Below, one piece after another: positions 25,401 to 52,861 of a stretch of 52,994 nt of DNA (positions within the stretch are counted from its first letter, which is position 1; each line of letters begins with the position of its first letter). Under the pieces are notes generated by a model. The model ran no database searches. It saw nothing but the letters and a program-made list of their open reading frames with translations, and was not told where the DNA came from. Position numbers and translations under genes: made by a program. The stretch is from Oligoflexales bacterium (GTDB lineage Bacteria > Bdellovibrionota_B > Oligoflexia > Oligoflexales > Bog-1112): the NCBI GenBank assembly GCA_013215275.1, contig JABSRF010000004.1, forward strand, positions 1 to 52,994, written 5' to 3'.

Positions 25401-25529
25401 CTCTGCAAATTCACTCACCGTCAGAGTAGGGGGTGGAAGAAAGCTTTGGGTAGCAACCTTGGCTTTCATTCGCGTTTTGCTCTTAATCTTCTCCATCAAC
25501 ATCTTCTTCAACTCCTGAGCCGATTTCAA
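22425..25529 (-). CDS. terminase large subunit (lambda GpA family) with intein
   Basis: AQIGK|T Walker A split by an intein; IDELDR Walker B; STPS; CPHC...CKGC; GCDVQ.DR nuclease motif. Confidence 0.95.
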   Translation of the reverse strand: MKSAQELKKMLMEKIKSKTRMKAKVATQSFLPPPTLTVSEFAEAYRILSVEDSPEPGKFKCWPFQREMLDSFNRQGNRMAVYMTSAQIGKALDINTLIATPDGWTTMGELKVGDKIFDEKGNACEVTYVSPVMLHRDCYRVTFSDDSSVVADADHLWQVGYAKWGRTDKKLTLTTEEMLPRFRSEKPGGKIRNHFSIPVAKPLELPEKELPIDPYVLGVWLGDGHNNSNKVTLNSEDLVIIDCIVNAGHRVRPIYMAEGYGGVTFSIDPGSPMRERKTCKRGHNLKEVGLNNRGYCKKCAVQSSQHYQRGYKQDDKIEFSLYEKLKENHFLKKFGGGKHIPQEYLRSSFKQRLSLLQGLMDTDGTCGKKGRCEFSTSDKELADGFFELITSLGFKAKYVVEHPFAVKNGVRTPGKPSYLFTFMAYRDDFEVFRAHRKLERQPFMAGRRVSEVKNRKIVNIEKVDSVPVRCIQVDSPSHLFLAGKSMIPTHNTTILFNMLMYMVCARTGGITFMLPSEVIARDYSKARFTPMLRDCKKLADLIPPGKTNGNTILYKQWPTGYLRFVGSGNADKLCSFPTPWLVIDELDRCEVVARNSAGVIEGNSLLLLFERMKRFAPRTFTLMTSTPSVKDTSQIYEYWLKSDQRLPYVACPHCEHEQFLDWENFFWDGKGDKHCTLSKQEMAKSFHFVCKGCAKKIWEEDFEEFPPKTRWVPQKADGEFPGFHINAFYTNSWQENFTKYLDAGQNQAKLMVWWNTTLGLPYNFEALQTPDWQGLQDKEKQYHRGTVPKQAMVLLAGCDVQHDRVEVTVAGVIKNQFFVIDHHVIPGNTHNADDQVWQDLDDLIHKSTWDKPDGTQLKIHKMSIDSRHNSNAVGRFARTRKKVVPVTGTGIWTDKVLPAKKFEIKVNGKIMRLGKHRYPLGVNLIKMDLYGRLNLKTDDGIPSEYISFPDGMSDEYYKQVCGEVCELTEDSEGRAKYKWIKKYPDVEGLDCLVYILGLHTILNMHKWSDEKWNAFEFGGDNIVEDAYPQQASFL
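24057..25259 (-). mobile_element. class 3 intein with LAGLIDADG homing endonuclease (401 aa)
   Basis: Starts Ala (ALDINTLIATPDG); block B DHLW, block F VRCIQV, block G IPTHN with Thr at +1 (WCT triplet); YVLGVWLGDG and LLQGLMDTDG endonuclease motifs. Confidence 0.92.
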
Positions 25530-34312: not shown

Positions 34313-34433
34313 CGCTTAGGACGACACACAAATAAAGGCAATGCTATGAAGCAAGTCTCTTACTGGTGTGGTGAAGATAGCTAGGGGAGTTGCGGCGGGA
34401 TATGAAAAGCCGGAAATTCCGGCTCTAAATTTG

Positions 34434-34817
34434 TAAGCTGTTGATATAATGGAATGTACCCAGTGTACCCAACGAAATATAGGATGGGCACACTTTTTGG
34501 GTACACTTTTTTATCAGTTTAATTAGTTAGTTAGATACTCTAAATTCTATTTGTACCCAGTGTACCCAAGAAATAAAAAGATATAGATATATAGAGATAT
34601 AAATAAAAATAAAAAAATATATCTGACTGTGGATGTATTTTATTTTTTTTATTTTCCCCTATCCCTATATATATTTCTTTTTCAGAAAAAGTGGGTACAT
34701 TGGGTACACTTCGAGATTTAAGCTTTAAGCACCTATAATATTGGAAAATATTTGTACCCAAAAAGTGTGCCCAACCCAAAATCAGGGTGGGTACAGTGGG
34801 TACATTTTTGGGTACAC
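34434..34817. repeat. iteron-type lytic replication origin
   Basis: About 11 TGTACCCA copies (direct and inverted) plus 2 TGTGCCCA variants around a central AT-rich block (34570-34690); IHF-like TAAGCTGTTGATA at 34434; immediately downstream of the primase-helicase. Confidence 0.82.
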
Positions 34818-34826
34818 TTGGAGAAA

Positions 34827-37586
34827 TTAGCTAGATATGGGGATTAGTTTGAGGCATTCAGCTTCAATTGTGCGGAATTTGCCATCGAGGACAATGACTT
34901 TCAGGTTGGGGTTGGACTTTAATTGCTTGCTGATACCAACGATAGCATCACGCTCAATCTTATCTTTGTGCTGGAAAATGTTATTTATAACTTCAACTTG
35001 AGTACCTGCAGGGAACACATCGGTGCCATATTGAGCTTCATCCTTAAGCGACCAAACTTTTGGCGGCTCACATTCTTCACGGTTTAAGATTAAATCAACT
35101 GGAATATACACGCTCTTGTCCAGTATTCCTGAGATCCTAATGGATTGCCGCTTTAAGGCCCCTTTGAGTCTTCCAAGGGAGTGATTCCAGTTTTTCCAAT
35201 GGGATTTTTCAAAAATTTTTGCAAGCTCCACATGCTTGCTGAATACAGCTAGGTACTCCTTCCCTTCTTTTTGATGGACCTTCATACCATACTTCTCCAG
35301 CTCCTTTTTGTGTGGTCCTTGCAGGATATTGACAATTGTATCCTCAAGGTGGCTAACTTGATCGCCAAAATCGCGTGTGTACCTTATCTTAGTGGTTAAT
35401 AGATGGTTTAAACATAATTCTTCATCCCGCTCAGTCTTGGAGAGATCCTTATCTGTAAGGCATTTCATCATCAAACATAGGTTTCTGGCAGCATCTTCCG
35501 TTGGAGGTTGATCCGATGTAAGACTAAAGTAGCTAGCTAATAACATTCCGGTTTGGTCTGCATAGCGTGAGGTATGCCCCATCTGTAAGATAACTTTCTT
35601 AAAGACTCTGTATCCCTCATTAATATTGTCAATTTGCTGGATAGCTCTTGCAAAAAGCCTAAGACCAAACTCGGGAGTGATTTTTTCGCAGGCAGCTAAA
35701 AGGTTAGCTTCATGAATTGGATCTGAGTTGTGACGTGCAAGTTCAAGTATGGAAAAGCGGCCCTTATCCTGAGCGCTTTTGAGGTGAACCTTGATCGAGC
35801 ATACTAAAGCAGTGACTTGGGGATCATAGTTTAATGCTGTACCACTTGTGGTTCCTTTATACATACGGGCGCTTGTAGGGCTCCATGATTGCCTCAGAAA
35901 CTCTATAATGCCTTGCTGGATATAGTTGTTAGATTCCGTCTCAAATTCATCGTATATGACCGGCAAAGAGTCACCTTGTAGGGTTTGCCTGATACCAGCA
36001 GCAGTGGTATCTTGTCCTGCTTTCATGAACCCATCTTCACCACCTAATGCGGGGGTCAATACATCGTTAAACAAAAGCGATTTTCCACACCCCTCACTGG
36101 CTGTAACCCATAGCCTGGGTCTTATAGGTAGCGCTCCTGATACTCTTGCAGTTGCAACCCATCCTAAGAACAAGGGGATTGAGTCGTAACACTCCCAAGA
36201 AAAGTGTTTGATAGCCATGATGAGAAGCTTGCATTCCTCCACTGTTAACGGTGTTGGTGGCTCTGGAAACGAAAACTGTGAAGCTGTGTAGGTGTAAGTT
36301 GAGTGGATGTCTGACATATCCTTCATGGTCCCATCCACTATGAGTTTTGAGCCTGTGTTCACTACCGTTGCTTTTTTATCCTTCCAGACACCAACACCTC
36401 TGACTTTGTGGGGTGAAAAGATCCCAGCATCCATAGACTCAGAAATGATCTGTGCTTTTGCTTGGTCCCAATAGACGCCACCGTCTGGTTTAGGGAACAT
36501 GACTTCTAGCTCATCAAGGGGAAAGGGTATTAATTCACATACGTTGCTGTTACTTACAGAGCGAGTTTTTTGTATTGTGTGATTCTTATAGCTATAGAAA
36601 TAATGGTAAGGACCATTTTGCCCAAGAGCCCTGTATGTGATTTTCTCGCCATCTTCTAAGCAAAGCTGGTCCTTTACCTCATCGAGCCCTTCTCTAACAT
36701 GAAGGTCGTTAAAATCGGTGGTAGCTTTTCCATCGTATTCCATAAATACGGGAAAAACCGGCTTGTTCATAAAGAGCTTAGATGCTTTTATAGCCTCGGT
36801 TTTGCCTGGGTTTCCTTCTGTAGCATGGTCATCATCACCAGCGACAACGAAGTTGACCTTGGGATACTCTTTCTTAAGAAGCTTTGAGACTTCCACAAGG
36901 TTATGTTTGGTGAAGGTCGCAACCACCACATTGCCTGTAGCTAGTCTAAGGCTTGCGCCCGTAGCCCATCCTTCGCAAATATAAACAACCTTTGATGGGT
37001 TAGTTAAATGACCGAATGTGTATATGCTACCAGTAAGCACAGTACCTAGGATCTGGTACTTACCGCCATCGGCAGAGATCCTTTGGCCACCCATGATTGA
37101 GCCTTTTATGGATCGGAACGGGATAAATAGCTTGTCACCGTCCATACAAAGGTCGAACGGCTCGATTAACTTTCGCTTTAAATAAGGATGGTCAGCGTTA
37201 GCCTTAGTCCCACGATCCAAGATCTTTTTAGCAGTCATCCTTGCTTCTTCGTTCAGCTTTTTCTTAGATTCATCGGCAACTTTCTTCGCTTTTTTCTGAG
37301 CGAACTTAATGTCTTCTTTCTCATTCCGGGAAAGCTTAACCTCTGGAGTAAAGGTATACTTTTCTTCATCACTGCTAGCCCAATCACCGAAGGTAACACA
37401 AAGGTATAACAAGCCTTTGGAGGTGGTTAGGTAGCTACCAATATACCAAGCTGAATTTCTGGACAAACCCTCACAACGTCTCAATTTTCCGTCCAAAATT
37501 GGATCATAGATGCTTACATCCCTAGAGGCTGCAAAGCGGATAAACTCTTCACGGAGGTCGTATTCGGTTCTCATATCTTCGCTCAT
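34827..37586 (-). CDS. TOPRIM primase - helicase fusion (TraC/P4 alpha-like)
   Basis: HPYL.RK, ICEGWATG, AGDDD, DFNDL primase motifs; GCGKS Walker A and IYDEFE Walker B. Confidence 0.92.
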   Translation of the reverse strand: MSEDMRTEYDLREEFIRFAASRDVSIYDPILDGKLRRCEGLSRNSAWYIGSYLTTSKGLLYLCVTFGDWASSDEEKYTFTPEVKLSRNEKEDIKFAQKKAKKVADESKKKLNEEARMTAKKILDRGTKANADHPYLKRKLIEPFDLCMDGDKLFIPFRSIKGSIMGGQRISADGGKYQILGTVLTGSIYTFGHLTNPSKVVYICEGWATGASLRLATGNVVVATFTKHNLVEVSKLLKKEYPKVNFVVAGDDDHATEGNPGKTEAIKASKLFMNKPVFPVFMEYDGKATTDFNDLHVREGLDEVKDQLCLEDGEKITYRALGQNGPYHYFYSYKNHTIQKTRSVSNSNVCELIPFPLDELEVMFPKPDGGVYWDQAKAQIISESMDAGIFSPHKVRGVGVWKDKKATVVNTGSKLIVDGTMKDMSDIHSTYTYTASQFSFPEPPTPLTVEECKLLIMAIKHFSWECYDSIPLFLGWVATARVSGALPIRPRLWVTASEGCGKSLLFNDVLTPALGGEDGFMKAGQDTTAAGIRQTLQGDSLPVIYDEFETESNNYIQQGIIEFLRQSWSPTSARMYKGTTSGTALNYDPQVTALVCSIKVHLKSAQDKGRFSILELARHNSDPIHEANLLAACEKITPEFGLRLFARAIQQIDNINEGYRVFKKVILQMGHTSRYADQTGMLLASYFSLTSDQPPTEDAARNLCLMMKCLTDKDLSKTERDEELCLNHLLTTKIRYTRDFGDQVSHLEDTIVNILQGPHKKELEKYGMKVHQKEGKEYLAVFSKHVELAKIFEKSHWKNWNHSLGRLKGALKRQSIRISGILDKSVYIPVDLILNREECEPPKVWSLKDEAQYGTDVFPAGTQVEVINNIFQHKDKIERDAIVGISKQLKSNPNLKVIVLDGKFRTIEAECLKLIPISS

Positions 37587-39094
37587 AGTGGACTTACCTC
37601 CGGTGCATAAATCTCATAAATATTGGATAGGTTTTTGTACGGGCAATAACGCTTGGCAATGGACTTGCCATACTCTTCTTCAAGTTTCCTAAAGACGAAT
37701 CCGGTTTTATAGTTTCTCATTTTGCCGATCTTAGCCCATTTGCGGCATGATGCTAGAACGAGATTGGAATTAATTTCCATCATCTCGGACTCTTCTTTTT
37801 CCTCTTCAGGATCATCCTTTGGTGGAACTGGGTCTGGCTCGGGGAATTCATGACCACAGCCAGGACAAGTGCGATCTCTAGACATACGGAAACAGAGGTT
37901 GCAGGAGGGGCATTCGGTCAAACCAAACTCATCATCCTTTTCCTCTTTAGGGGTGGGTTCGAAGTAAGCCTCTGGTGCGTCTTCCACCAGACCGTGTTCT
38001 TTAAGGCATTGAGCGAAGTCTAACACCTTGCAGTGCTTCTTTTCGTAGCCATCTTTAGAATATGGTCTAGTCCCTCGGCCAACCATTTGATGAAATAAAA
38101 TCAATGATTTAGTAGGCCTACAGAGTAAAATCATTTCAATTGCTGGACGATCGAGGCCGGTGGTGCAGGTATCCACATTAAAGACAACTCGGAGCTCACC
38201 GCTCATAAGGCGGTCGAGGATTTTGTTTCGCTCCTTCATGGACTTGGTGTGATCGATGTAATCTGCAGGGATGTCATTATCGGTGAAAAATGCTGCCATA
38301 GCTTTGGCATGAGCTATAGAAACACAAAAAGCCAGAGCGGGCTTGCCTTCATCATGTTTGTGAAAGTCTTCTAGTATCTCACTAAAAATTTCCTTCTTAT
38401 TTATGGCAAGCTCAACATCCTCGGCAACATAGTCATCACTTTTTTTATCCACCCTCAGCTTTGAGGTATCAATCTTAACCAGCACATAATAGCGAGGATG
38501 GATAAGGAAGCCCAACTGGGCTAGTTGGTCAAACTTGATAGGCCATTCGACGCGATCAAAAACATCATCAAAGCCCCTCTTTAAATAAGGGGTAGCTGTG
38601 AAACCGGCTTTTGGGCAGTCATAGCTATTGTATAGCTCGACGCAATTGTCGCTCATGATCCGATGGATTTCATCCATGATAATGAGATCAGCTTTAGGCT
38701 TATGCTTGCGTCTAACAAGGGTATCTATGGAGCATAATTGGACCTTAGCCTTACGATTTGTCAGCTTATGCTTCGCCTGGATGACTCCAAATTTAATATC
38801 AAACCTTTGCAAGTGCTCCGCAAATTGCTCGATTAGTTGGATACCGTGGATGACAATCATCACACGAAGGCCAAGAACCTCAGCAACAAACTTAACAAGG
38901 TAAGCCATAATGATGGACTTGCCTCCGCCCGTAGCGAGGTGAATAAGGGTGGAGTTCCATTGCCTCAAGAAATTTAGGATGAGCTCCGTTTGGTAAGGTC
39001 GAGGCTTAGCAAAAGGTAGCTCAATAGCTCTGAGTTTATCCCGATTGGGATCTTGCCTAACTAGCTGCATTAATATCCTCCCATCCCAGAGCAA
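37583..39094 (-). CDS. SF2 DEAD/DEAH-box helicase (YejH/RadD-like)
   Basis: RPYQ, ATGGGKS, DEIH, TATP, QMVGRGTR motifs; C-terminal CPSC...CPGC. Confidence 0.94.
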   Translation of the reverse strand: MLWDGRILMQLVRQDPNRDKLRAIELPFAKPRPYQTELILNFLRQWNSTLIHLATGGGKSIIMAYLVKFVAEVLGLRVMIVIHGIQLIEQFAEHLQRFDIKFGVIQAKHKLTNRKAKVQLCSIDTLVRRKHKPKADLIIMDEIHRIMSDNCVELYNSYDCPKAGFTATPYLKRGFDDVFDRVEWPIKFDQLAQLGFLIHPRYYVLVKIDTSKLRVDKKSDDYVAEDVELAINKKEIFSEILEDFHKHDEGKPALAFCVSIAHAKAMAAFFTDNDIPADYIDHTKSMKERNKILDRLMSGELRVVFNVDTCTTGLDRPAIEMILLCRPTKSLILFHQMVGRGTRPYSKDGYEKKHCKVLDFAQCLKEHGLVEDAPEAYFEPTPKEEKDDEFGLTECPSCNLCFRMSRDRTCPGCGHEFPEPDPVPPKDDPEEEKEESEMMEINSNLVLASCRKWAKIGKMRNYKTGFVFRKLEEEYGKSIAKRYCPYKNLSNIYEIYAPEVSPL

Positions 39095-39332
39095 CCAATG
39101 TGCTAATTATTTTTTTCCTGGTTTTAGGTTGAGGGTTCGCTACTAAAGGAAGATCTTTGCGAGTTGAGGCAGGAATCCCAGCTTTTTTACATACCGTATT
39201 GGCATCTTTGCCAACCTGACTTGCTGCAACCTGGAGTTGTTCCCAAAAAGTTACATTTGAAAGCATAAAAGCAATCCTTTCCGTGTGAGGTTCTGCTAAA
39301 AGTGTGGTCCTGCTTTTTATGTAGCCCTGCAA
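39057..39332 (-). CDS. small Cro-like HTH protein
   Basis: VCKKAGIPAST helix-turn-helix-like segment; overlaps the helicase start. Confidence 0.45.
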   Translation of the reverse strand: MQGYIKSRTTLLAEPHTERIAFMLSNVTFWEQLQVAASQVGKDANTVCKKAGIPASTRKDLPLVANPQPKTRKKIISTLVALGWEDINAAS

Positions 39333-39420
39333 GTGTGTGAAACCTGCGGTTATAAGGTAAAGCGGTAGCTAGGCACTGTTTAAACAGGCTCATTTGTGGT
39401 GCTAACGCTTAGGGATTAAA

Positions 39421-39858
39421 CTAGAGTTTCATTAGTTTTCTAGCGGTACTATCAAGATCCCACCTAATATTCATAGGGCCCTGATGAACCTTTCCTTTAA
39501 CTTCAGTGGTCATGAAGTTTACTTTAGATAGCAACTTCCCATCTTTCGTCGGCTCCCACCCCTTGCTGGATTTAGTCTGCAAGCCATGAGCAGCTAGGAG
39601 CTTATTTACATCCCTTGCAGCAAGACTAGATGTTGAATACCCTTTCTGTTGCAAGGTAATACCCAATTGAGTGGGAGTTCCAAATTCTTCTTCTTTTTTA
39701 TTAGTAGTATCGATATTATGTGATGGTTGTACTGAAACGTCTGTGTGACTTTTTATATATGCCATTGCAAGAGCATCGGCTTTGTCCTCAGAGAACCCTA
39801 CTCTTAAAGCGTCACTCTTGATCCCGATTGCTTGTTGAGCTATTGAGCTAAACTTCAT
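39421..39858 (-). CDS. antirepressor C-terminal (KilAC-like) domain protein
   Basis: TPTQLG...A..VNKLL...GLQ.K...WEPT..GK motif; first gene of the leftward early operon. Confidence 0.7.
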   Translation of the reverse strand: MKFSSIAQQAIGIKSDALRVGFSEDKADALAMAYIKSHTDVSVQPSHNIDTTNKKEEEFGTPTQLGITLQQKGYSTSSLAARDVNKLLAAHGLQTKSSKGWEPTKDGKLLSKVNFMTTEVKGKVHQGPMNIRWDLDSTARKLMKL

Positions 39859-40044
39859 TTTTTACCCTCTCGTCCTAAGTCGTTAAAAAAATCCTTTAGA
39901 TCTCGATATGGTAAAAAAATGTATGAAATACTTTCTTGCAAAACAAGTCAAAAAATATACATAAAAATGTGTCAAAGCCTTGGTGAGGGTACTATTTGTA
40001 TAAAACACCCAACTTTCATACAGAAAAAATGAGGGCGTTAAAAA

Positions 40045-40518
40045 ATGAACCAGGAATACAAAAAAATTGTACAAAATCAATTGAGACAATTCTTAAGAGC
40101 CTACCGTCATGCTGAAAACATCAGCGCAGAAGATGCAGCTTGCAAACTTGACCTGGAAATAACTAGTTATCGAAAGCTAGAAGGTCTCAAGCCTGAAAAT
40201 AGAGTAATAAGCAGCATCAGCTACCTAGAAAAGATTGCAAAACTAAGGGCTAAATCTCTCGTTGATTTCATCTCTTTCTTAACCCCTCAAGATTTGGTGA
40301 ATGGTTTAGGTAGAGGCTTATACCTATGGGAAAAAAATATTATTTCTGGCTTTGAAAAAATGAGTGTATCTAAGCGGAATAAATTTCTTAACTATCTCAG
40401 CAAGCTAGAGGAAGATGAGCTAGCTGATTTTTATGACCACTTAGTTGAAATGTCTAAAAAGCGATCTTCAAAAATTTCTTTCACAACTCGCATATTAAGG
40501 GAGCTAAAGGATGACTAG
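40045..40518 (+). CDS. XRE-family HTH regulator in repressor position
   Basis: LR.YR....IS.EDAA.KL......YRKLE HTH; divergent from the early lytic operon. Confidence 0.75.
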   Translation: MNQEYKKIVQNQLRQFLRAYRHAENISAEDAACKLDLEITSYRKLEGLKPENRVISSISYLEKIAKLRAKSLVDFISFLTPQDLVNGLGRGLYLWEKNIISGFEKMSVSKRNKFLNYLSKLEEDELADFYDHLVEMSKKRSSKISFTTRILRELKDD

Positions 40519-40873
40519 AGTATTGGTAATCGAAGATGATCCACATTTTGGTGACACTCTTAAAATGAAATTGGAGATGGATGAAGGTGTAAAGGTTGAC
40601 GTTTACAGAGATTTCGAAACGTTCGCGGAAAAAGTCACATCACCACATCAAGTAAAAGAATACTCATGTGCTCTAGTCGACTACCAATTTGGTCGCTACA
40701 ACGCTTATCATAAAGGGTCAGCAATCTATCTACGAGAAGACCTTCAGTTTAAAGGAAAAATTTACCTGTGGACGCTAGAAAAACTTGAAGATGTAAAAGG
40801 AAAAGAGGACTACGACGCAATACTTCCCAAAAAATTCTATTCATTTTCCGCTCTTGAGAGGTTTGACAGTTAA
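40511..40873 (+). CDS. stand-alone response regulator receiver
   Basis: VLVIEDD, LVD phosphoacceptor, LWT, LPK; overlaps the HTH gene by 8 nt. Confidence 0.85.
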   Translation: MTRVLVIEDDPHFGDTLKMKLEMDEGVKVDVYRDFETFAEKVTSPHQVKEYSCALVDYQFGRYNAYHKGSAIYLREDLQFKGKIYLWTLEKLEDVKGKEDYDAILPKKFYSFSALERFDS

Positions 40874-40875
40874 AA

Positions 40876-42678
40876 ATGAAATTCCTGCTTGTGCTCATTT
40901 TTTTGATTTTCTCTACTAGTAGCTTTGGCGTAACAATCACCCAAAAAACGGAGGATTTAAAGCTATCCGATGATCTTAAGATTCATTTAACCTCGGATAA
41001 ATTAGAAATTGAGGATGTTGTAAAACTAAACCCTGGAGAGTTTTCTAAGTACGCGAGTGGTAAGAGCTTAGGGTTCACCCAAAAAGTTCTCTGGGGTAAA
41101 GTGCCAATTAAAAATCGATCAGGTATCGAAGACTGGTTTGTTTCACTTTATGTCAGCCATATCGGGAGTTTCAGACTATATAAAGTGCAAGGCAAAAACA
41201 TAGAACTTGTCGAGCATGTAGGAAGGGATATTGACGCTCGTACTAGAGCTGTTAATCTAAAATATCCTACTATTCCAGTTGCAATTTCTAAAGACTTTGA
41301 TGGGTACTTTTATATACGAGCGGAGTCCGAAAATAACTTGACCATTGACCTTGATTTAAGGCGGATAAATTCTCTAATCACACATATGCATAAGGACGTA
41401 ATTTTCCAAGGAATCTACTATGGCTTTCTTATTGGTCTAATGCTTTATGTTTTGAGTTTATGGATTTTTGCATCCGAGTCACTTTATGGAAGATATGGTC
41501 TCTATCTTTTCGCAATGGCTTTACTACAACTTGCTGTTACCCATGATGGTTCTACCTATTTATGGCCAGGAAAAATTACTTTTGATAAAACTCTTGAGAC
41601 TTTCTCGGGAGGTTTAATTTTCGTCACCATGGGCAACTTTTTAAGAGAGTTTTTTAAGGACTATTTACAAAAAATGCCCTCAGCTATCCCAACTAATGCA
41701 ATCAAAGCTGGTGGAATTGTTTGTCTGATTTCAATACTCTCATCAAATTATGTACTCAACATTGTTGGAACAATAATATTGGTTGCCTGCTTTTTCCCTG
41801 CAGTAACCTGGTTCCTCTTTAAGGCATGGAGATCAGGTATTAAACCAGCACTTTTTATGTGGATCGGCTGGGGTGCAATGTCTCTTGGAATGTACTACCA
41901 GATAGTCATGAAGTCGGGATTTTTTTCTCTTCCATACATATATAATTTCTTCCAAGTTACTTGCATCATTGATTTCATTTTGTTTACCGCATCTATTTCC
42001 CTAAGGATAAGAGACATAAATATAGAATTAGCAGAAAAAAAAAGCTCTTTGCAGCTATCCAAGGGGTTATCAGCTATAAGCGCCGGGATAGCACACGAAG
42101 CTAAAAAACCATTACAGGCCGTTTCCAACGTGCTAGATGAATTATTAGAAATATCTGATACTTCCAACGCCTACCTCAAAAGATTGTTGGATAGTTCTCG
42201 CAATAAACTAAATCATTCTGGAGCTATTTTTGATGATATTCTAAAAATTGGCAAGCCTGACATGAAATTTCAAGAATTGGAGATAAGAAGACTCATTGAG
42301 GATGCTATCAACCTGTCTAAAATTTCGTACACTCCAAAGCTTGAAATAGAAGATTTTTCTTTAAAATGCGACAAAGAAAAAACGATTCGAGCCTTCACCA
42401 TTTTGATCGATAATGCCTTCGAGCATGGTGCCAAAGATGGTGAACCTGTTTTGATTCGAACTTGTGCCAAGAACAAGAAAACTTTAGAGGTAATCAACTA
42501 TGGTGTTTATCTCGAAAAAGATGAAATAAGAACCATTTTTGAACCCTGGGTAACTAAAGGAGGTAATGGCCTAGGTCTTTACCTCTTTAGCTCAATTGTG
42601 AAATCCCATAATTGGGAAAACCGTTGCCATTCGAGTAAAAAGGACAACTTCGTGGCTATGATTTTGACATTCAATTAA
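40876..42678 (+). CDS. 7TM-DISM sensor histidine kinase
   Basis: Signal peptide; DISMED2-like domain (SLGFT..VLW); 7TM region (GIYYG); H-box AHE.KKPL, N-box DNA, F-box IFEPW.TK, G2 GNGLGL. Confidence 0.9.
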   Translation: MKFLLVLIFLIFSTSSFGVTITQKTEDLKLSDDLKIHLTSDKLEIEDVVKLNPGEFSKYASGKSLGFTQKVLWGKVPIKNRSGIEDWFVSLYVSHIGSFRLYKVQGKNIELVEHVGRDIDARTRAVNLKYPTIPVAISKDFDGYFYIRAESENNLTIDLDLRRINSLITHMHKDVIFQGIYYGFLIGLMLYVLSLWIFASESLYGRYGLYLFAMALLQLAVTHDGSTYLWPGKITFDKTLETFSGGLIFVTMGNFLREFFKDYLQKMPSAIPTNAIKAGGIVCLISILSSNYVLNIVGTIILVACFFPAVTWFLFKAWRSGIKPALFMWIGWGAMSLGMYYQIVMKSGFFSLPYIYNFFQVTCIIDFILFTASISLRIRDINIELAEKKSSLQLSKGLSAISAGIAHEAKKPLQAVSNVLDELLEISDTSNAYLKRLLDSSRNKLNHSGAIFDDILKIGKPDMKFQELEIRRLIEDAINLSKISYTPKLEIEDFSLKCDKEKTIRAFTILIDNAFEHGAKDGEPVLIRTCAKNKKTLEVINYGVYLEKDEIRTIFEPWVTKGGNGLGLYLFSSIVKSHNWENRCHSSKKDNFVAMILTFN

Positions 42679-42697
42679 CGATTTTTAGGATATACAG

Positions 42698-43423
42698 ATG
42701 AAAAATAAAACTTTATTTGCTATCTTCTTTACTTTTGTGTTTATTTTCATTGGGGGCTTTTCTTACATGTTTACGGGACGCACATCGACTAATCAAAAGT
42801 TTGTAATTTTAGATTTTGATGGGGTAATTGCCGATTCCTGGCAAATTGCTTTTGAGACTATGAATTCTTATTCTGAGGAGTTTGGTTTTTTGCCAATGTC
42901 ATTCGACGCGGCATCAGACCTAACAACAAAAGAGATATTTAAGGCTTATAATTTGGGTTTTTTCGCTCAGTTTAGGCTAGCTAGTAAAGTAAAGAGTGCT
43001 TTACATGAGAACATGAATAAGATCGATGTTTTCCCAGAATTTTTAGCTATCTGTAAAAGGCTTTCAGAACAGGGTATAGAGGTTGCCATTATAACATCTA
43101 ACTCCAAAGAGAATGTCGATAAGTTTTTTAGTCATAATAAGATTGATTTTATAAAAATAGTTCATAGTACCACATCAATTTTTGGTAAGGATTCCGCGAT
43201 AAAGTCATTTTTAAAAGAGTATGGAGTAAAAAAAGAGAACGCTATTTATGTTGGTGATGAAGTAAGAGACGTCACAGGCGCAAAGAAAGCTGGCATCCCC
43301 GTGATGGCAGTTACTTGGGGGTTCGATCCCCGCGCGAAGCTATTACAAGAGGGGCCAGATTATTTGGTGCATGATTCAAAACACGCGCAAATGATTTTAG
43401 AAAAATACTTTCAACTGAATTAA
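42698..43423 (+). CDS. HAD-superfamily phosphatase with N-terminal membrane anchor
   Basis: DFDGVIAD (I), TSN (II), GK (III), GDEVRD (IV); hydrophobic N-terminus. Confidence 0.92.
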   Translation: MKNKTLFAIFFTFVFIFIGGFSYMFTGRTSTNQKFVILDFDGVIADSWQIAFETMNSYSEEFGFLPMSFDAASDLTTKEIFKAYNLGFFAQFRLASKVKSALHENMNKIDVFPEFLAICKRLSEQGIEVAIITSNSKENVDKFFSHNKIDFIKIVHSTTSIFGKDSAIKSFLKEYGVKKENAIYVGDEVRDVTGAKKAGIPVMAVTWGFDPRAKLLQEGPDYLVHDSKHAQMILEKYFQLN

Positions 43424-43451
43424 AAATACCGTTTATACTGAGAGGATATTT

Positions 43452-44534
43452 ATGTTTAAAATTTTTATTAAATCGTTCACTGCATTTTTTATTTTCTTCT
43501 GTCTTTATACTTCTGCTGATGCGGTTGAGTTTGAGCAAGCTAATAAGTTCATACAGGAATCAATTGATTCAAGTCATGAATTCGGCATCCAATCTTATGC
43601 ATCAGGTGATATTCTGTTCACTAAGCAAATAGAGCTTTCAAAGCTCAGAAATTTTGTTATCAAAGCTACTGGTAAAGACCTTATCAAGTACGATCTAGGT
43701 CCAGAGTCATTTTCATCTCTGATAGCCCTTCGTGTTTTGCATGATGTAGAGCACAAAGAACTGAATGATAAGCTGATAAAGCTTGGTTATACGCTTGCCA
43801 CGGCTGAATCTTTAGAATTGCCCAACAGAATTCATTTCTTTCACAATAACACCGATTTTGCTGCAGACATTGATGCAACATCAATTACTGCAGTTGCCCT
43901 TTATAAATCAGGTTTGATCTCTGATGATGAACTTATTCAATATGCTAAAGAAGTATTGAAAAGCAGACCAGAGGATGGTGATTATAAAGACCTTCTCCAG
44001 GTTTACTGGGAAGATGGAGCCGAGCCCAACCGAGGAATTAAGTTTGATCCGGTAGTAACGGCTAATGCTCTTTATCTTATCAAAACGGCTCAATCACTGG
44101 GGCTTGGTGTAGACGATCGAGTCATTGAAAAAAATATTAATTTCATAGTGAGCCATCTTCAGAGTGGAGAATACAAAAATGGGACAAGGTATTATCCACT
44201 GCCCGAGATATTTCTATATTTTTCATCACTGCTCTGTGATTTTAAGGAATTTTCAAAAGTCTTAAAACCTATGATTTTTGAAGCTATGTCTAGCTACCTT
44301 ACTTCAGAAGTCAGCCCTTTAGAAGCATCCCTCAGAATTTTAGTAGCTAAACAAGTAGATTTGGACGTTGATCTAAAACCACTTTCCCTGAGCCTACGTT
44401 CTTCTTTAACAAATCAAGGGTGGCAAGCTGGGCCATTTTTTAAGCTTGGTAAGAGTTCCATATTTTTTGGATCAAACACAATTACTTCAATATTTGGCCT
44501 TAAGGCAATTTACCTCTTAGATGAAAGAATTTGA
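43452..44534 (+). CDS. class II terpene cyclase beta-domain protein (HAD-like drimane synthase cyclase type) with signal peptide
   Basis: FF...F.ADIDATS (43866-43883; DxDxT variant of DxDD), L.VYW, DPVV.ANAL, Y.NGTRYY..PE.FLY (44181), W....FF..G....FGS...T pattern. Confidence 0.72.
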   Translation: MFKIFIKSFTAFFIFFCLYTSADAVEFEQANKFIQESIDSSHEFGIQSYASGDILFTKQIELSKLRNFVIKATGKDLIKYDLGPESFSSLIALRVLHDVEHKELNDKLIKLGYTLATAESLELPNRIHFFHNNTDFAADIDATSITAVALYKSGLISDDELIQYAKEVLKSRPEDGDYKDLLQVYWEDGAEPNRGIKFDPVVTANALYLIKTAQSLGLGVDDRVIEKNINFIVSHLQSGEYKNGTRYYPLPEIFLYFSSLLCDFKEFSKVLKPMIFEAMSSYLTSEVSPLEASLRILVAKQVDLDVDLKPLSLSLRSSLTNQGWQAGPFFKLGKSSIFFGSNTITSIFGLKAIYLLDERI

Positions 44535-45357
44535 AATGAGACACATTATAATAATAATTTCATTGTTGTTTTCTTCTGCCTCTTTTGCAGATTATCCGCT
44601 AAGTTTTAACAAAGCAGCCCCTCTACTACCTAAGCCTCATGGGAATGGTTATGCAAGTCATAGTTTTGATGATTCAACTAGTATATATGAAATTTCATCA
44701 ACTCATGCTGGCCCACAAGGAAGAATCTTAGATCTAGCATATCGAAACACAAGATTAAATAACGAAGGCCTAGACAAATTTGGTTTAACTCTTGGAGGAG
44801 TTATTCCTAATTCAAACGACGATTTGATAGCTTTTAAATCAATTATAGGTTTTGTTCATAGTAGAGGCTACTACGATCATACAGGGGAAATATTGGCAAC
44901 CTGGGTTAAAAATATAGGATCATATGACATTATTATACTAGGTGGCGGTTACAAATTCGTCTCAACTAAATTCAGTGATGCCTACCCTCTTATCGGTTAT
45001 AGAAGATATGTCAAAGGTAGATATAGTTTTGAAGCCATCCTTCCATCTCATGTTAAAGCAAGTCACGATCTCAATGACACCTTAGAAATTGGAGTTTTTT
45101 CTAATTTAGGTAGTGAACTAGTCTGTGTTGGTGAAAAAGAGATCTCGGACGGTGAATTACCCGATTCGGTTCTGGGCAAGTACCAAACTGTCAGAGTTGG
45201 TATTGAGTCAACTATTAAAGTTGCTGAAAACATAGAGTTTACTGCTAAATTTGGTCAATCCCTAGCTAGAAAGATAACTAAGGACGACAATAAGGTATCA
45301 AAGCTGGATGGTAATCAGAATTTCGCAGAAGTGGCTTTGAACGTATCTAAGTTTTAA
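44521..45357 (+). CDS. outer-membrane beta-barrel protein (DUF6268-like)
   Basis: Signal MRHIII...SFA (likely start 44536); GGGY, YPLIGY, EAILPS strands; terminal Phe. Confidence 0.7.
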   Translation: MKEFEMRHIIIIISLLFSSASFADYPLSFNKAAPLLPKPHGNGYASHSFDDSTSIYEISSTHAGPQGRILDLAYRNTRLNNEGLDKFGLTLGGVIPNSNDDLIAFKSIIGFVHSRGYYDHTGEILATWVKNIGSYDIIILGGGYKFVSTKFSDAYPLIGYRRYVKGRYSFEAILPSHVKASHDLNDTLEIGVFSNLGSELVCVGEKEISDGELPDSVLGKYQTVRVGIESTIKVAENIEFTAKFGQSLARKITKDDNKVSKLDGNQNFAEVALNVSKF

Positions 45358-45412: not shown

Positions 45413-45970
45413 CTAAACCACATCAATCCCAAACAAAGTGGTAACTCGATCCTTTAGGCAGCCACAGGTTCTATCTCCAATAGATTCGAATAGAGCCTTG
45501 CAAATTATGCACTTGCGAATCTTAACTTCTATCGAATTTAGACCTGCTGCAGCCCTTGCTTCTTGAGTTTCACGAAGGGCAGCCTTATCTGGTTTGGATA
45601 GCTTTTTTATTGGCTGATGTTTTCCCTCTACATGGCTATACTCAGGCATATGAGAGCAAACATACTCCAAGATTCTTCTGCTAATAGCAGTCGCATATGC
45701 GTTTGATTCGTGTGTCTTAAATTCCTTCAAATTTGAGTATTTTTCGGCTGTTTCCTTGAGCTTTTCATCTGTCCATATTCGTTGTTTTGGCCTCACCATA
45801 TGAGAACAAACACTATCTAGAATATTAAGACGACTCGCATATTTATACGCCCCACTTGCCTTATTTTTGAACTCACCTATAGTTGAATACTTCAATGCTT
45901 CGATAGAAACAGCTTCTTTTGTCCATAGAAATTTCTGTTTATGTTGTTTGTTAGTTTCCATTTGCATCAC
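45413..45970 (-). CDS. tandem WT.E-repeat putative DNA-binding protein with C-terminal zinc ribbon (paralog 1)
   Basis: Two WT.E....A.KY...EF....AY..A....L..VCSHM repeats plus KIRKCIIC...TCGC. Confidence 0.75.
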   Translation of the reverse strand: MMQMETNKQHKQKFLWTKEAVSIEALKYSTIGEFKNKASGAYKYASRLNILDSVCSHMVRPKQRIWTDEKLKETAEKYSNLKEFKTHESNAYATAISRRILEYVCSHMPEYSHVEGKHQPIKKLSKPDKAALRETQEARAAAGLNSIEVKIRKCIICKALFESIGDRTCGCLKDRVTTLFGIDVV

Positions 45971-46045
45971 CGAGTCTTATAGGTTTCTAAATTACATTAA
46001 CTCTATAAACAGGTATATTAATCTGATTTTCAGTGATTTTTATGA

Positions 46046-46408
46046 TTAAATATGCTTCTTGACCACTTTCAAAAAATTTTCACTCGTAAACGGTTTCAAG
46101 ATAATCTCTAAAACATTAGTTCCATCTATTGCATCCCGCTTATCAGGGGGAACACCAGTGATTAAAATTAGCTTTGGAGTAATATTTTTTTCATTGAGAA
46201 TATTGAGGAACTTATACCCATCGATATAAGGCATTACAAGATCTAATATTACAAGGTCTGGCTTGTGAAGAAGAAGCAAAGACATTCCATCTTTTCCGTT
46301 ATCCGCAGACATTACGTCATATTCATTTTCCAATAATCCATTCAAAAAATTTAGCATTAATTTGTCGTCATCTATAACTAAAACTGATTTTTTCATACCG
46401 ACTCGCAA
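46046..46408 (-). CDS. stand-alone response regulator receiver (CheY-like)
   Basis: VLVIDDD, PDLVILDLVMP..DG, ITG, KPF. Confidence 0.92.
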   Translation of the reverse strand: MRVGMKKSVLVIDDDKLMLNFLNGLLENEYDVMSADNGKDGMSLLLLHKPDLVILDLVMPYIDGYKFLNILNEKNITPKLILITGVPPDKRDAIDGTNVLEIILKPFTSENFLKVVKKHI

Positions 46409-46568
46409 AAGTTTGAAAGGAGTTGCTAGTCTTCATTATAGAACTTGTTGATTTTTAAGACCAGAGCGATCCAAGAGGCAATTGCGATCAAATCAAACTT
46501 CGGCGGAATTTCCAGTCACACTGATAAAGCAGCCAAACGTTATGAATCGCCGGACTTTGCATCAAAAC

Positions 46569-47135
46569 TCAGATCACATCGAACCCAGTAAGCCTTGCCG
46601 TCGCAACTGATCCGCGAAAACAACCACATGACCTATCGCCAGTTGATTCAAACTCAATTTTGCAGTGCATACATTTTCTTATTTTAATTTCGATAGGCTT
46701 AGCCCCGATATTAATCCTGCTTCTATTAACAGCCTCTAACTCAGTACGAGACAATTTTGATAGCTTCTTAAATGGCTTCTTTCTTGGGTTTTGAAAGGTA
46801 TCCATATGCGAGCAAACTAACTCCAGCATCCCCTTTCTTTTTGCTGCATTATAGGCGTTAGAATCATTTTTTAAGAATTCTTGAGGGGTGCTAAATTGCT
46901 GTGCTACTTCTCTTAACGTATTTTCGTTCCACCTTCGATCTGGTAAAGGTGTTTTATCCATATGCGAGCATATTTTCTCCAGCATTTTATGCTTAGATGC
47001 ATAAGAATAAGCTCCAGAAGAGGATTCTCTAAAATGCCTTTTATGCTGATATTTTTGTGCTTCTTGTGTAACGGTATCTTCAGTCCATGATATTCTTTTT
47101 CTAGGGTGAGTATCCTTTTGCATATTTAAAACCAC
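46569..47135 (-). CDS. tandem WT.E-repeat putative DNA-binding protein with C-terminal zinc ribbon (paralog 2)
   Basis: Same architecture as 45413..45970: two repeats ending CSHM, then KIRKCMHC...SCGC, G.DV end. Confidence 0.75.
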   Translation of the reverse strand: MVLNMQKDTHPRKRISWTEDTVTQEAQKYQHKRHFRESSSGAYSYASKHKMLEKICSHMDKTPLPDRRWNENTLREVAQQFSTPQEFLKNDSNAYNAAKRKGMLELVCSHMDTFQNPRKKPFKKLSKLSRTELEAVNRSRINIGAKPIEIKIRKCMHCKIEFESTGDRSCGCFRGSVATARLTGFDVI

Positions 47136-50999: not shown

Positions 51000-51893
51000 T
51001 CAGGTCTTTGTATCTGATGATTCAAATTTCACTAATTTAAGCTCGCTCAAAACGCTTGATATAAAGGAAATTTGGTCTTCATTAAACTTCTTGTTATTGC
51101 AATATTCATAAAACTTTTCAGTCCTTAAGGGGAATTTATTTTTCCGAACATCTTTTTTTTCTGTCGGGCTGCCCGACACATTAACTAGAGCCAATAATGC
51201 TTCAATAACTTCGGAGTCAGTCATTTTCTTTTTTGCTATATGACCAAGCTTTCGAATGTTTATATCATGCTCCTTAATTAATTGTTTTGCATCATTTGGC
51301 CATTTTGCAATTTTCAAAAGCTCGACGACATACCCTCGATGCTTATTCAATATTCGCGCAACACCTGTTGTCGTTTCATTCAACCTTTCCTTTAGGTTGA
51401 GAACTGACTCAGCAAGTTCTAGTGGCTTTAAGTTTTGCCTTACCAAATTTTCAGCTAAACGAGCCAAATGAATATCTTGCTCGTTTTCTGAATATATCAG
51501 CTCAGCAGGACAGGTTTCATAACCTAGTTCTTTTAGAGCCATTATTCTTCTGTGACCAGCTACACATAAAAAAGGTTTTGAAGTGGATAGACCCAACGTT
51601 AAAACAGGGCGCTGTAAAAGCCCCTGTTCCTTTATCGATTCTCTCAAACCAACAAAATCTGCCGTAGAAGTATCAATCTCTCGACTGTTTTGAGATAAAT
51701 CAATCTCGTCAATTCTTACACTAGGTAGAGAACCTTTCCCTTTTTGCTGAACCTTTTTAAAAACTTCTTTTACAGAAAGATACCATTCAGCTTGCGCATC
51801 CACTTTTTTATGATCTTTAAACTCTTTTTCTACCCCTTTTACAGTTGATGCAATTTTACTAGCTAATTTAGACTTTGCTTTGCTTTTTTTCAT
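51000..51893 (-). CDS. parB: ParB/Spo0J partition protein
   Basis: L.ESI.EQGLLQ, VAGHRR..A, AENL.RQNL.PLE.A, then HTH. Confidence 0.93.
   Translation of the reverse strand: MKKSKAKSKLASKIASTVKGVEKEFKDHKKVDAQAEWYLSVKEVFKKVQQKGKGSLPSVRIDEIDLSQNSREIDTSTADFVGLRESIKEQGLLQRPVLTLGLSTSKPFLCVAGHRRIMALKELGYETCPAELIYSENEQDIHLARLAENLVRQNLKPLELAESVLNLKERLNETTTGVARILNKHRGYVVELLKIAKWPNDAKQLIKEHDINIRKLGHIAKKKMTDSEVIEALLALVNVSGSPTEKKDVRKNKFPLRTEKFYEYCNNKKFNEDQISFISSVLSELKLVKFESSDTKT
51161..51178. promoter_or_regulatory. second copy of the parS-like palindrome, inside parB
   Basis: CTGTCGGGCTGCCCGACA, identical to 93-110. Confidence 0.6.
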
Positions 51894-52861
51894 AACCCAT
51901 GCATCTCCTCTTCAAGAACTAATGAGGGAACAGGCATTTTTTCTAAAGATGGTGTATCTCCGAGTTCTTTCCTAAATCTTTTCAAGGTATCCTTGTCCAA
52001 AGCTGGAGTATTTGGAGATCTTCCTCTTCTATTCAACTTAAGCTCTGGAAGAATAAGTTTGGCAAGCCTTGTATATGCTTCACTTATAGGGAGCTTCGAT
52101 TGCCCGTGTACAATTGGATTTTCCATCGCACAAGATGTTGGTACTGCCTTAGAAAAGGGTACGGTTCCTAATAAAGGCATACCGACCTGCTTTCCTAACT
52201 TTTCAATTGCTTCCAAAAACATTCTATGGACTGTTATTGACTTATCGTACTTGGTCACGAAGCAACCTAAAACATGGAGCGTTGGGTTTAGCTTGTCTTT
52301 TATCATTTTCACATTTTTGAACATAACGCGAAGTGCATCAAGACTATCCGCTTCAGCAAAGAGTGGAAGAACATAGTAGTCTGCAGCAACCATTACATTT
52401 GTAAAAGTTAAATCTAAGGAAGGGTGGGTATCGATCACGATAATATCAAACTCTTCCCTTGCCTTTATCAACCAGTCTCTCATAATCCCATGAGAACCGG
52501 GCTGAGCTAGAAAAGAGTTATTAAATTCACTAAAATCTTGATCAGCTCCAACAGCGTAAACATTGTCGAACTTGGTTTTCAACCAGATCGACTCTGCTGC
52601 TTTCTGCTCGAAAAACGCTACGGAGATTGTTTTCTCAAGATCTATAGCCTGTTGCTTTATTCCAATCTGAGCGCTTGAATTCCCTTGATAGTCAGCATCA
52701 ACAAGCAGGACTTTCAAACCAAGATTAGCAAACGCACAACAAAGATTTGTACTAGAAACAGATTTTCCAACACCACCCTTTTGATTAGCCAAGGCAAGAG
52801 TAACGCCTTTAATTTTTTTAGATCTCTTCATAATTCGATTCCTTAACGGCTTGGCATGCAA
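51890..52861 (-). CDS. parA: ParA/Soj partition ATPase
   Basis: ANQKGGVGKS, LLVDADYQGN, IVIDTHP motifs; likely start MKRSKK at 52831. Confidence 0.96.
   Translation of the reverse strand: MHAKPLRNRIMKRSKKIKGVTLALANQKGGVGKSVSSTNLCCAFANLGLKVLLVDADYQGNSSAQIGIKQQAIDLEKTISVAFFEQKAAESIWLKTKFDNVYAVGADQDFSEFNNSFLAQPGSHGIMRDWLIKAREEFDIIVIDTHPSLDLTFTNVMVAADYYVLPLFAEADSLDALRVMFKNVKMIKDKLNPTLHVLGCFVTKYDKSITVHRMFLEAIEKLGKQVGMPLLGTVPFSKAVPTSCAMENPIVHGQSKLPISEAYTRLAKLILPELKLNRRGRSPNTPALDKDTLKRFRKELGDTPSLEKMPVPSLVLEEEMHGL

Follow-up and report, generated by a model that had tools for sequence, protein, structure and literature searches.

On contig JABSRF010000004.1 of the Oligoflexales bacterium assembly GCA_013215275.1, which carries tailed-phage genes and a partition system, six adjacent genes of the plus strand (40045 to 45357) encode a helix-turn-helix (HTH) protein (p1), a receiver (p2), a sensor histidine kinase (p3), a HAD phosphatase (p4), a class II terpene cyclase (p5), and a predicted outer membrane beta-barrel (p6). 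The window analyzed here is the whole of this contig (C334; 52,994 bp), and its parent assembly comprises 4.55 Mb in 710 contigs. We put at roughly 50% the probability that p1 to p6 form a mobile-element regulatory cassette with phosphorelay input, to which a module for making and exporting a terpenoid is attached. What was observed directly, and what this reading draws on, is the order of the genes, the identity of their domains, their catalytic residues, and the synteny seen in relatives. As judged from homologues, the HTH-receiver-kinase-HAD core is conserved at the regulatory position of two distant phages.

Components of the operon

The six open reading frames (ORFs) are tightly packed, with junctions of -8, +2, +19, +28, and -14 nt (negative values are overlaps), in agreement with the original prediction, which was made from the sequence itself and described six co-oriented genes with junctions below 30 nt at these coordinates. 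They are real genes rather than chance ORFs, because family or structure matches support four of the six, and the domain guesses made for all six proved right or plausible when set against Pfam, the PDB, predicted folds, and alignments. The prediction had also placed the operon divergent from a second one containing antirepressor, Cro, and replication genes. The replication part stands: on the minus strand, an early/replication operon (34827 to 39858) codes for 145-aa and 91-aa proteins, an SF2 helicase (37583 to 39094; Pfam ResIII/Helicase_C), and a primase (34827 to 37586; Pfam Toprim_3 and PHROGs DNA primase). The antirepressor and Cro labels are unverified, and the small genes at 39057 to 39858 had no Pfam, PHROGs, or PDB match. 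The two operons are separated by an AT-rich intergenic region of 186 bp (39859 to 40044), bounded by ORF starts at 39858 (minus strand) and 40045 (plus strand), which presumably contains the promoters and the target of the regulator. A 68-aa ORF at 39883 to 40089 overlaps the p1 start and looks spurious.

The fifth gene, p5 (43452 to 44534; 360 aa), which is preceded by a GAGAGGA Shine-Dalgarno sequence, had been called terpene cyclase-like, and this call was correct. It has no Pfam or NCBIfam family match, and its assignment as a class II terpene cyclase with a single beta domain comes from PDB sequence matches and fold. Its sequence matches the C-terminal cyclase domain of the drimenol synthase AsDMS in the PDB with an E value of 8.3e-24 and the fungal AstC with an E value of about 1e-7. 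The AlphaFold2 (AF2) model (predicted local distance difference test score [pLDDT], 92.2) has the alpha/alpha-barrel fold of beta domains, and its best Foldseek match is 9m7f (template modeling [TM] score, 0.75; root mean square deviation, 2.8 A; E = 1.3e-16). All of the 10 top-ranked Foldseek matches are AsDMS chains (TM score, 0.73 to 0.75; E ~1e-16), followed by squalene-hopene cyclases, MstE, and SsDMS.

In AsDMS, D323 is the general acid and R368, R370, R415, and Y416 are diphosphate ligands (PMC12232559). The DxD(D/T)T motif is present in p5, with D139-I-D141-A-T aligned to D321-L-D323-T-T of AsDMS and hence D141 to the general acid, and R194, K197, R246, and Y247 of p5 align with the four diphosphate ligands. 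These four residues are invariant in an alignment of 8 sequences, and D139, D141, Y185, D199, N205, Y247, and Y248 are invariant in 28 sequences. By alignment and model, p5 truly belongs to the class II terpene cyclases of drimenyl-diphosphate type, and its catalytic residues are intact; the cyclized, dephosphorylated isoprenoid that the original prediction had proposed as the product would be chemically sensible given these residues. It consists of the beta domain only, with the HAD protein encoded separately by the upstream gene p4; because the HAD fusion is absent, we file p5 with the stand-alone mono-beta cyclases, and its domain content makes it a mono-beta relative of, and not itself, a bifunctional drimenol synthase. 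The N terminus of p5 resembles a signal peptide (two lysines, a 12-residue hydrophobic core, and A-D-A); this segment of about 24 residues ends just where the conserved domain begins and is absent from 27 aligned homologues.

The family to which p5 belongs is small, with 296 representatives at an E value of <=1e-3 among 1.84 billion proteins, the nearest nonidentical one sharing 38% identity. No homologue was found in the 15 other genomes of the host family, and a single weak one (25% identity; E = 1.7e-9) was found among 130 other genomes of the phylum; the nearest genome relatives, at 27 to 35% identity, belong to Polyangiaceae and actinomycetes. As for substrate supply, the host assembly holds two polyprenyl synthases. 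A 94-kb IMG/VR contig (L003:9953-10972) encodes a 339-aa homologue of p5 (30% identity) with a DTDCT motif and no signal segment, and its neighbors are RNA repair genes (two PNKP-like kinases/phosphatases, two RNA ligases, and RlaP) with no sensor kinase among them. These two, the window and the 94-kb contig, are the only viral examples found here, and phage-borne terpene cyclases may be an overlooked class. A literature search of partial coverage, which is not proof of absence, yielded neither a class II terpene cyclase described from a phage nor a terpenoid autoinducer or terpenoid quorum sensing in bacteria.

Upstream of these genes, p3 (40876 to 42678; 600 aa) is a solid match to the 7TMR-DISM sensor histidine kinases in its domain content, with a signal peptide, a periplasmic DISMED2 domain, a 7TM region, a dimerization and histidine phosphotransfer (DHp) domain with His407, and a catalytic (CA) domain. 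Pfam scores for 7TMR-DISM_7TM (80.6 bits), DISMED2 (43.3 bits), and HATPase_c (39.2 bits) all exceed their cutoffs, and HisKA, at 20.2 bits, lies below its cutoff of 26.9. The H box (H407-E-x-K-K-P-L), the N box (D512-N-A), and the G box (G563-x-G-L-G) are invariant between p3 and its homologue in genome G011, and p3 is the sole 7TMR-DISM_7TM match in the host assembly. The identity of p4 (42698 to 43423; 241 aa) as a HAD-IA phosphatase with an N-terminal transmembrane helix is likewise solid from its profile match (HAD_2, E = 2.4e-30) and motifs: D39-F-D41-G, S134-N-S, K164, and G186-D-E-V-R-D191 are invariant in an alignment of three sequences, and residues 3 to 21 form a hydrophobic segment. 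An AGGA Shine-Dalgarno sequence lies 5' of its ATG. Elsewhere in the host assembly, a p4 paralogue of 29% identity without the membrane anchor (G000:C701:5929-7756; L067) immediately follows a long-chain polyprenyl diphosphate synthase gene. This adjacency occurs in two of nine genomes with a HAD match, recurring in a genome of the same genus only, where the HAD gene looks frameshifted, and deriving the p4 substrate from it was dropped as too weakly supported by recurrence.

The candidate master regulator is p1 (40045 to 40518; 157 aa), an XRE-like, repressor-like HTH protein with a helical C-terminal half. A homologue of p1 reaches HTH_31 at 21.6 bits, under the cutoff of 27, and a profile of 12 p1 family sequences gives a weak match to the "immunity repressor" Rco of pLS20 (PDB 8BNY; E = 3e-4 over 129 positions) and weaker ones to SinR (E = 0.07 to 0.2). 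A p1-type gene diverges from early/replication genes in three elements, namely, the window and the contigs G011:C10 and G003:C8. Through the 8-nt overlap, p1 is translationally coupled to p2 (40511 to 40873; 120 aa), a single-domain receiver that, as read from alignments, is atypical, yet has kept its phospho-acceptor aspartate. It scores 16.9 bits for Response_reg against a cutoff of 30.2, over the first half of the profile only, and a homologue at locus L054 scores 17.2 bits; in an alignment of 13 sequences (12 family members and a canonical receiver), D57 and K107 are invariant, D9 is nearly so, and a serine or threonine is found within LW[ST]. A predicted p1-p2 complex scored 0.15 against a mark of 0.32 in a run without controls, and we used it neither for nor against binding.

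The last gene, p6 (44521 to 45357; 278 aa), encodes a predicted outer membrane beta-barrel that exceeds the DUF6268 cutoff narrowly (23.5 versus 22.8 bits) and has the features of that family, with a signal-like hydrophobic segment at the N terminus and a C-terminal phenylalanine. The nearest Atlas clusters are DUF6268, outer membrane protease, autotransporter-beta, and Phenol_MetA_deg (scores, 0.96 to 0.97), and a role as a channel for hydrophobic molecules is possible. The HTH and barrel calls are weaker than the kinase and HAD calls.

Scans for promoter-like sites (15 versus 24.9 expected) and terminator-like sites (5 versus 5.2 expected) gave no informative regulatory signal. An RNA library run from the source study contained identical contigs for parts of this region, and 28 of 30 bins had depth; one contig (43072 to 43566) bridges the p4/p5 junction, and another (39803 to 40372) crosses the intergenic region into p1. 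Because this cover is low and even, includes the replication and partition genes, and may be DNA carryover, it was not counted as evidence of transcription or of a carrier-state pattern. Nor was anything concluded from stretches that lacked cover in a run, such as p5 in run X9. An AT-rich simple repeat upstream of the primase operon (around 34600 to 34622) showed very high depth and AT-repeat loose ends in several runs, and a depth spike at 34334 to 35000 was rejected as expression, being a low-complexity artifact.

Relatives of the cassette and its carrier element

Homologues of p1 are present in 15 of the 95 genomes of the order (order counts include the host assembly, G000) and in 10 of the 15 other genomes of the host family, at up to eight places per genome. 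The survey covered 33 loci with p1 homologues (the window plus 13 plus 19), and at 17 of these a p2-like receiver gene lies directly 3' of the HTH gene, usually overlapping it. The closest relative of the cassette is found on G011:C10 (39 kb; L050), a contig of a 59%-complete genome, where it takes the same position as in the window, divergent from the primase operon. The backbones of the two elements share 33% (terminase), 37% (portal), 48% (primase), 31% (ParA), and 26% (ParB) identity, and their cassettes share 39 to 43% (HTH), 28 to 29% (receiver), 36% (7TMR-DISM kinase), and 37 to 40% (membrane-anchored HAD). The GC content of the G011:C10 cassette is 37.5 to 37.9%, compared with 44.9% for its phage. 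Within the kinase, identity to p3 is 38.6% in DISMED2, 43.1% in 7TM, 25.6% in DHp, and 35.5% in CA. Relatives of p3 at an E value of <=1e-20 were found in 3 of the 95 genomes of the order, among at most 13 candidates scored per genome.

The original prediction had made the co-conservation of all six genes a check on itself, and the synteny search did not bear it out: G011:C10 has the HTH, receiver, kinase, and HAD genes and lacks the cyclase and barrel genes. HAD and kinase genes are thus inherited together in two of two elements, whereas cyclase and kinase genes are not. At shallow divergence, the six-gene form appears stable: a marine plankton metagenome from another study contains identical pieces of the operon, including p5 and p6, and a biofilm metagenome contains pieces of p2/p3, p3/p4, and p6 at 97 to 99% likeness. 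Our searches did not find it at intermediate divergence. Among 50,697 phage records, DNA searches with the operon and the structural region and tblastn searches with p5 and p1 gave no match, and tblastn with the p3 kinase gave four weak matches, the best of 20.5% identity. IMG/VR scans with p5, p3, and an alignment of the two kinases gave no close relatives, and metagenome contig scans gave nothing with p5 and one partial match (24%) with the kinase alignment. A word-based search of 5.8 billion proteins returned near-identical copies of p5 and p6 only.

Among the 17 HTH-receiver pairs, 11 were typed as carrying a histidine kinase together with an enzyme of one of several types (HAD, AMP-ligase, nucleosidase-like, amidinotransferase-like, and alpha/beta-hydrolase). 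The window, L050, L059, L097, L053, L086, and L054 were typed by Pfam, except that for L050 the HAD was typed by NCBIfam and the kinase by its identity to p3 (36% over the full length); L049, L051, L052, and L055 were typed by their 41 to 63% identity to L054. Contigs G003:C8 and G001:C389 both have the order HTH, receiver, AMP-binding ligase, and 7TMR-DISM kinase, and on G003:C8, which carries terminase, primase, and ParA homologues, the cassette diverges from a replication-initiator-like gene. On G005:C241, the HTH and receiver genes are followed by a weak PNP_UDP_1 match, a 7TMR-DISM hybrid kinase, and a PNP_UDP_1 enzyme, and on G004:C34, by an amidinotransferase-fold enzyme, an unknown protein, and a hybrid kinase. 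The loci L054, L049, L051, L052, and L055 have the order HTH, receiver, 377-aa protein, kinase, and alpha/beta-hydrolase, divergent from genes for two sigma-70 region-4 proteins, a TraU-like protein, and a T2SSE ATPase; this multicopy type of locus resembles a conjugative or pilus-type element that bears the regulatory head of the phage cassette. Contig C143 (L025) of the host assembly has the same neighbors and ends after the receiver gene. The remaining HTH-receiver pairs lie at contig edges or have as neighbors an SSF-type protein, a 2-oxoglutarate oxygenase, or, on the other strand, a DAO enzyme.

Judged from these loci, an HTH-receiver head joined to a sensor kinase and to one small-molecule enzyme of varying type is a recurring arrangement in the host family. 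Terminase homologues accompany three of the 11 cassettes on their contigs (the window, G011:C10, and G003:C8), and five have TraU and T2SSE genes as neighbors. In four cassettes, the enzyme gene stands between those of the receiver and the kinase, and the enzyme is therefore not a passenger of the operon 3' end. Beside one truncated p1-like ORF (L060:7934-10174, on G011:C28), we observed a PT-HINT/Ntox21 polymorphic toxin gene and a DUF3885 gene, the latter likely encoding the immunity partner of the toxin.

The element that carries the operon encodes a large terminase, a portal, a capsid-protease fusion, a tail sheath, a tape measure, and a baseplate (PHROGs), together with a single-stranded DNA-binding protein and a small tyrosine recombinase. 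On the minus strand, it also encodes ParB (51000 to 51893; ParB-like in PHROGs) and ParA (51890 to 52861; Pfam AAA_31, CbiA, and ParA), and the presence of this partition system in the absence of a large integrase suggests a plasmid-like prophage state. No terminal overlap was found for the contig, which is probably near complete, as identical copies of p6 are recorded on seven contigs, the longest of 53,087 bp. The best capsid match, which we treat as a lead only, is to a phage-like replicon of Silvanigrella aquatica (30% identity). The large terminase ORF (22425 to 25529, minus strand) is unusually long (1,034 aa), and residues ~58 to 349, in its N-terminal third, also match DnaC-like loader and primase P-loop families of PHROGs.

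GC content is 36.5% in the operon, 41.8% in the window, and 42.5% in the genome, and the low-GC stretch spans about 40 to 47 kb of the window. The same low-GC island encodes a canonical single-domain receiver (46046 to 46408, minus strand; Response_reg, 70.4 bits, E = 1.8e-19), a candidate for phosphorylation by p3 in place of p2. Contig C411 of this assembly has a copy that is 88% identical to it, and no homologue of it was found in G011:C10. In the window (45413 to 47135, minus strand), it is flanked by paralogous 185-aa and 188-aa genes (40% identical; phrog_20046), fragments of which are repeated on contigs C97 and C1. The segment 48553 to 50868 and contigs C97, C411, and C1 hold fragments of related elements within this one assembly, among them an 82% identical copy, on C97, of a 771-aa protein of the window. 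These fragments suggest a binned population in which several related phage-plasmids are present together.

Proposed mechanism and competing explanations

In the mechanism that we infer, with all of its interactions, substrate, product, and regulatory targets, the XRE-type, Rco-like p1 would act on the 186-bp divergent region and set the expression of both the early/replication operon and its own operon. The kinase p3 would read a periplasmic or membrane cue, autophosphorylate at His407, and pass the phosphate to Asp57 of the output-less receiver p2, which in its phosphorylated form would alter the activity of p1. The HAD protein p4 belongs to the conserved core with p1 to p3. As the add-on of this phage, p5 would protonate an isoprenoid diphosphate, most probably host farnesyl diphosphate (FPP), at its terminal double bond to give a bicyclic drimenyl-type diphosphate; p4 would strip the phosphates to leave a sesquiterpene alcohol; and the p6 barrel would let this hydrophobic product cross the outer membrane. 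Since they lie, on a phage-plasmid with ParAB, in the operon of the regulator itself, p1 to p6 would be expressed in the carrier state.

Several observations weigh against this mechanism. The intergenic region, scanned from 39800 to 40100, contains only short weak repeats and no clear operators. The regulator p1 has no Pfam match, its AF2 model is poor (pLDDT, 65.9; predicted TM score, 0.38) and all helical, with five N-terminal helices, and the window may encode another candidate repressor among its small ORFs. The PDB matches of p4 at an E value of <=1e-5 include no AsDMS chain, so p4 shows, by this comparison, no specific relationship to the AsDMS HAD domain; we accordingly dropped the label "split drimenol synthase," and adjacency is left as the basis for pairing p4 with p5. 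The membrane orientation of p4 is ambiguous, and its homologue in G011 looks cytoplasm facing from the flanking charges. If p5 is cleaved and exported, cytoplasmic FPP would be out of its reach. Finally, G011:C10 has neither a cyclase nor a barrel, and no cyclase homologue was found in its 59%-complete genome; because they are absent there, cyclase and barrel are not needed for the function of the core.

This last point also bears on the autoinducer loop of the original prediction, in which the sesquiterpenoid alcohol made by p5 and p4 would leave through p6 and be bound by the DISMED2/7TM region of p3, phospho-p2 would then set p1, and the phage would gauge carrier density in deciding between maintenance and lytic growth. 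The layout is that of known synthase/sensor systems such as agrBDCA, comQXPA, cqsA/cqsS, lqs, and phcBSR, with enzyme, sensor kinase, and receiver in one operon; the phage phiCDHM1 is described as carrying agrB, agrD, and agrC; over the 11 cassettes, the enzyme type changes together with the kinase, and four of them have the enzyme gene placed between the receiver and kinase genes. The sensor domain, the p5 signal peptide, and the barrel are all predicted to point to the cell envelope. However, the sensor of G011:C10 is as conserved as the rest of the kinase in a phage without cyclase or barrel, which makes the p5 product unexpected as the specific ligand of p3; there is no sign of hypervariability of sensor and synthase; and DISMED2, generally regarded as a carbohydrate-binding-like module, is not an obvious terpenoid pocket. 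For the phage pair, a ligand derived from the shared HAD, or an external ligand, fits better than the p5 product. Of the proposed synthase with its cognate sensor, then, the recurring enzyme and kinase layout holds up, and the cognate pairing of cyclase and kinase is not supported, the sensor being as conserved as the catalytic part despite the missing cyclase. We consider the full loop possible, with the odds clearly against it. A wider version, in which the operon belongs to an unrecognized family of communication cassettes on mobile elements of a little-studied Gram-negative lineage, each combining an HTH protein, an output-less receiver, and a kinase with its own signal-making enzyme and thus its own small-molecule dialect (here a cyclic sesquiterpenoid alcohol), seems to us somewhat more doubtful. 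The three cassettes in contigs with terminase homologues and the five beside TraU and T2SSE genes lie in settings of element-specific communication, for which arbitrium and Rap-Phr are given as examples in the accessible part of PMC7790227.

Alternatively, the block, or at least p4 to p6, might be accessory cargo without a role in phage decisions, providing the carrier with a bioactive drimane-type terpenoid (antimicrobial or antigrazer) under its own two-component control by an environmental cue. Such an origin would agree with the low-GC island, with a cyclase whose homologues are foreign to the host lineage, with the 3' end of the operon as the place of the cyclase and barrel (a typical spot for added genes), and with the bioactivity described for drimenol-type products. 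We think it unlikely, given that the HTH-receiver-kinase-HAD genes keep one backbone position in two phages sharing 26 to 48% protein identity, that a variant cassette is found on one more contig having a terminase homologue, where it diverges from a gene resembling a replication initiator, and that the kinase, by the count of 3 genomes in 95 given above, is not a gene of the host lineage; because the position of the cassette is kept in distant phages, we argue for a backbone function of the core. The signal-like N terminus of p5 invites a different reading, in which exported p5 and membrane-anchored p4 would act on a periplasm-exposed isoprenoid diphosphate, e.g., a polyprenyl diphosphate carrier, and so alter the envelope for superinfection exclusion or receptor masking, with p3 monitoring the envelope. 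That segment ends at the start of the conserved domain and is found in none of 27 homologues, p3, p4, and p6 are all predicted envelope proteins, and class II cyclization by enzymes of this type needs no Mg2+ (PMC12232559; 10.1101/2025.09.20.677545) and would thus be feasible outside the cytoplasm. The active-site residues of p5 nevertheless match a C15 drimenyl-type enzyme, and the HAD homologue of G011 looks cytoplasm facing. Neither export of a terpene cyclase nor cyclization of a carrier lipid has a precedent known to us, although no search aimed at this was made, and we regard this reading as highly improbable. The regulatory cassette with an attached terpenoid module remains our preferred reading; the observations of the original prediction were confirmed, and its interpretation is partly supported.

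Comparison with known systems

In our preferred reading, the operon is a variant of mobile-element regulatory and communication modules joined to a mono-beta class II cyclase, an unusual pairing. Among the closest known enzymes is AsDMS of Aquimarina spongiae, a HAD-TCbeta bifunctional class II cyclase-phosphatase (PDB 9MHS and 9M7D-F), with which p5 shares the beta-domain fold, the DxDxT motif, the Arg/Lys/Tyr ligands, and a GTRYYP segment at about 21 to 22% identity in the Foldseek alignment. It differs from AsDMS in that the phosphatase is encoded next to it as a separate gene and not fused, that p4 is a generic HAD-IA protein not detectably closer to the AsDMS HAD domain, and that both p4 and p5 have N-terminal hydrophobic segments. 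A stand-alone mono-beta cyclase of Sorangium cellulosum is reported to cyclize FPP without Mg2+ and to need a phosphatase for release of the alcohol (10.1101/2025.09.20.677545). Like p5, it is a single beta domain apart from any HAD, with a DxDVT motif, and the presence of Polyangiaceae among the nearest genome relatives of p5 is a further likeness. In Sorangium, the HAD gene is distant and its protein is inactive on the product, whereas in the window it is adjacent (10.1101/2025.09.20.677545); p5 further differs in being phage borne, in its export-like signal, and in its place within a two-component operon.

Among phages, phiCDHM1 of Clostridium difficile carries the agr3 genes agrD, agrB, and agrC, and it is thus alike in combining signal-making genes with a sensor histidine kinase; its genes form a host-captured peptide system without receiver or regulator (PMC3901668). 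In contrast, the cassette of the window has a receiver, an HTH protein, and small-molecule enzymes, and it has no host-lineage counterpart outside mobile elements. The phage VP882 has a plasmid-like prophage, the state suggested for the element described here. Arbitrium (AimP/AimR/AimX) and VqmA-Qtip of VP882 are alike in being phage-encoded sensing systems for lysis versus lysogeny, and their receptors are cytoplasmic one-component proteins for a peptide or for host DPO (PMC7790227). The window instead has a membrane kinase, a phosphorelay, a separate HTH protein, and possibly a signal made by its own enzyme.

The pLS20 regulator Rco (PDB 8BNY) resembles p1 in that both lie at a divergent promoter region controlling the main operon of the element and in that a partner protein brings (for p1, would bring) the signaling input, and the p1 profile aligns with it over ~129 residues at an E value of 3e-4, a weak similarity. 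Rco is reportedly the master repressor of pLS20, with Rap/Phr input. The input is a Rap protein and a peptide in pLS20, and for p1 it would be the phosphorylated receiver. The sensors RetS and LadS of Pseudomonas are chromosomal hybrid kinases of the Gac network and share with p3 the fusion of DISMED2 and 7TM regions to a histidine kinase, whereas p3 is a plain kinase and is phage borne.

Overall, the cassette of this marine phage may be a phage-borne small-molecule signaling unit, and the link from the terpene to the sensor, i.e., from p5 to p3, is unproven. If it is true that a complete chain of membrane kinase, receiver, and HTH protein sits at the regulatory hub of a phage-plasmid, this would be a new type of wiring for phage decisions, as known phage sensing uses cytoplasmic one-component receptors for peptides or host autoinducers. 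Terpenoid synthesis would be a new kind of trait for a phage to confer, irrespective of the role it plays, and, should the autoinducer loop hold, it would be the first terpenoid autoinducer and the first phosphorelay-driven decision between lysis and lysogeny or on maintenance. More broadly, mobile elements of Gram-negative bacteria might communicate by small molecules through HTH-receiver-kinase cassettes in which the enzyme is interchangeable, and the parts of these candidates can all be expressed in Escherichia coli.

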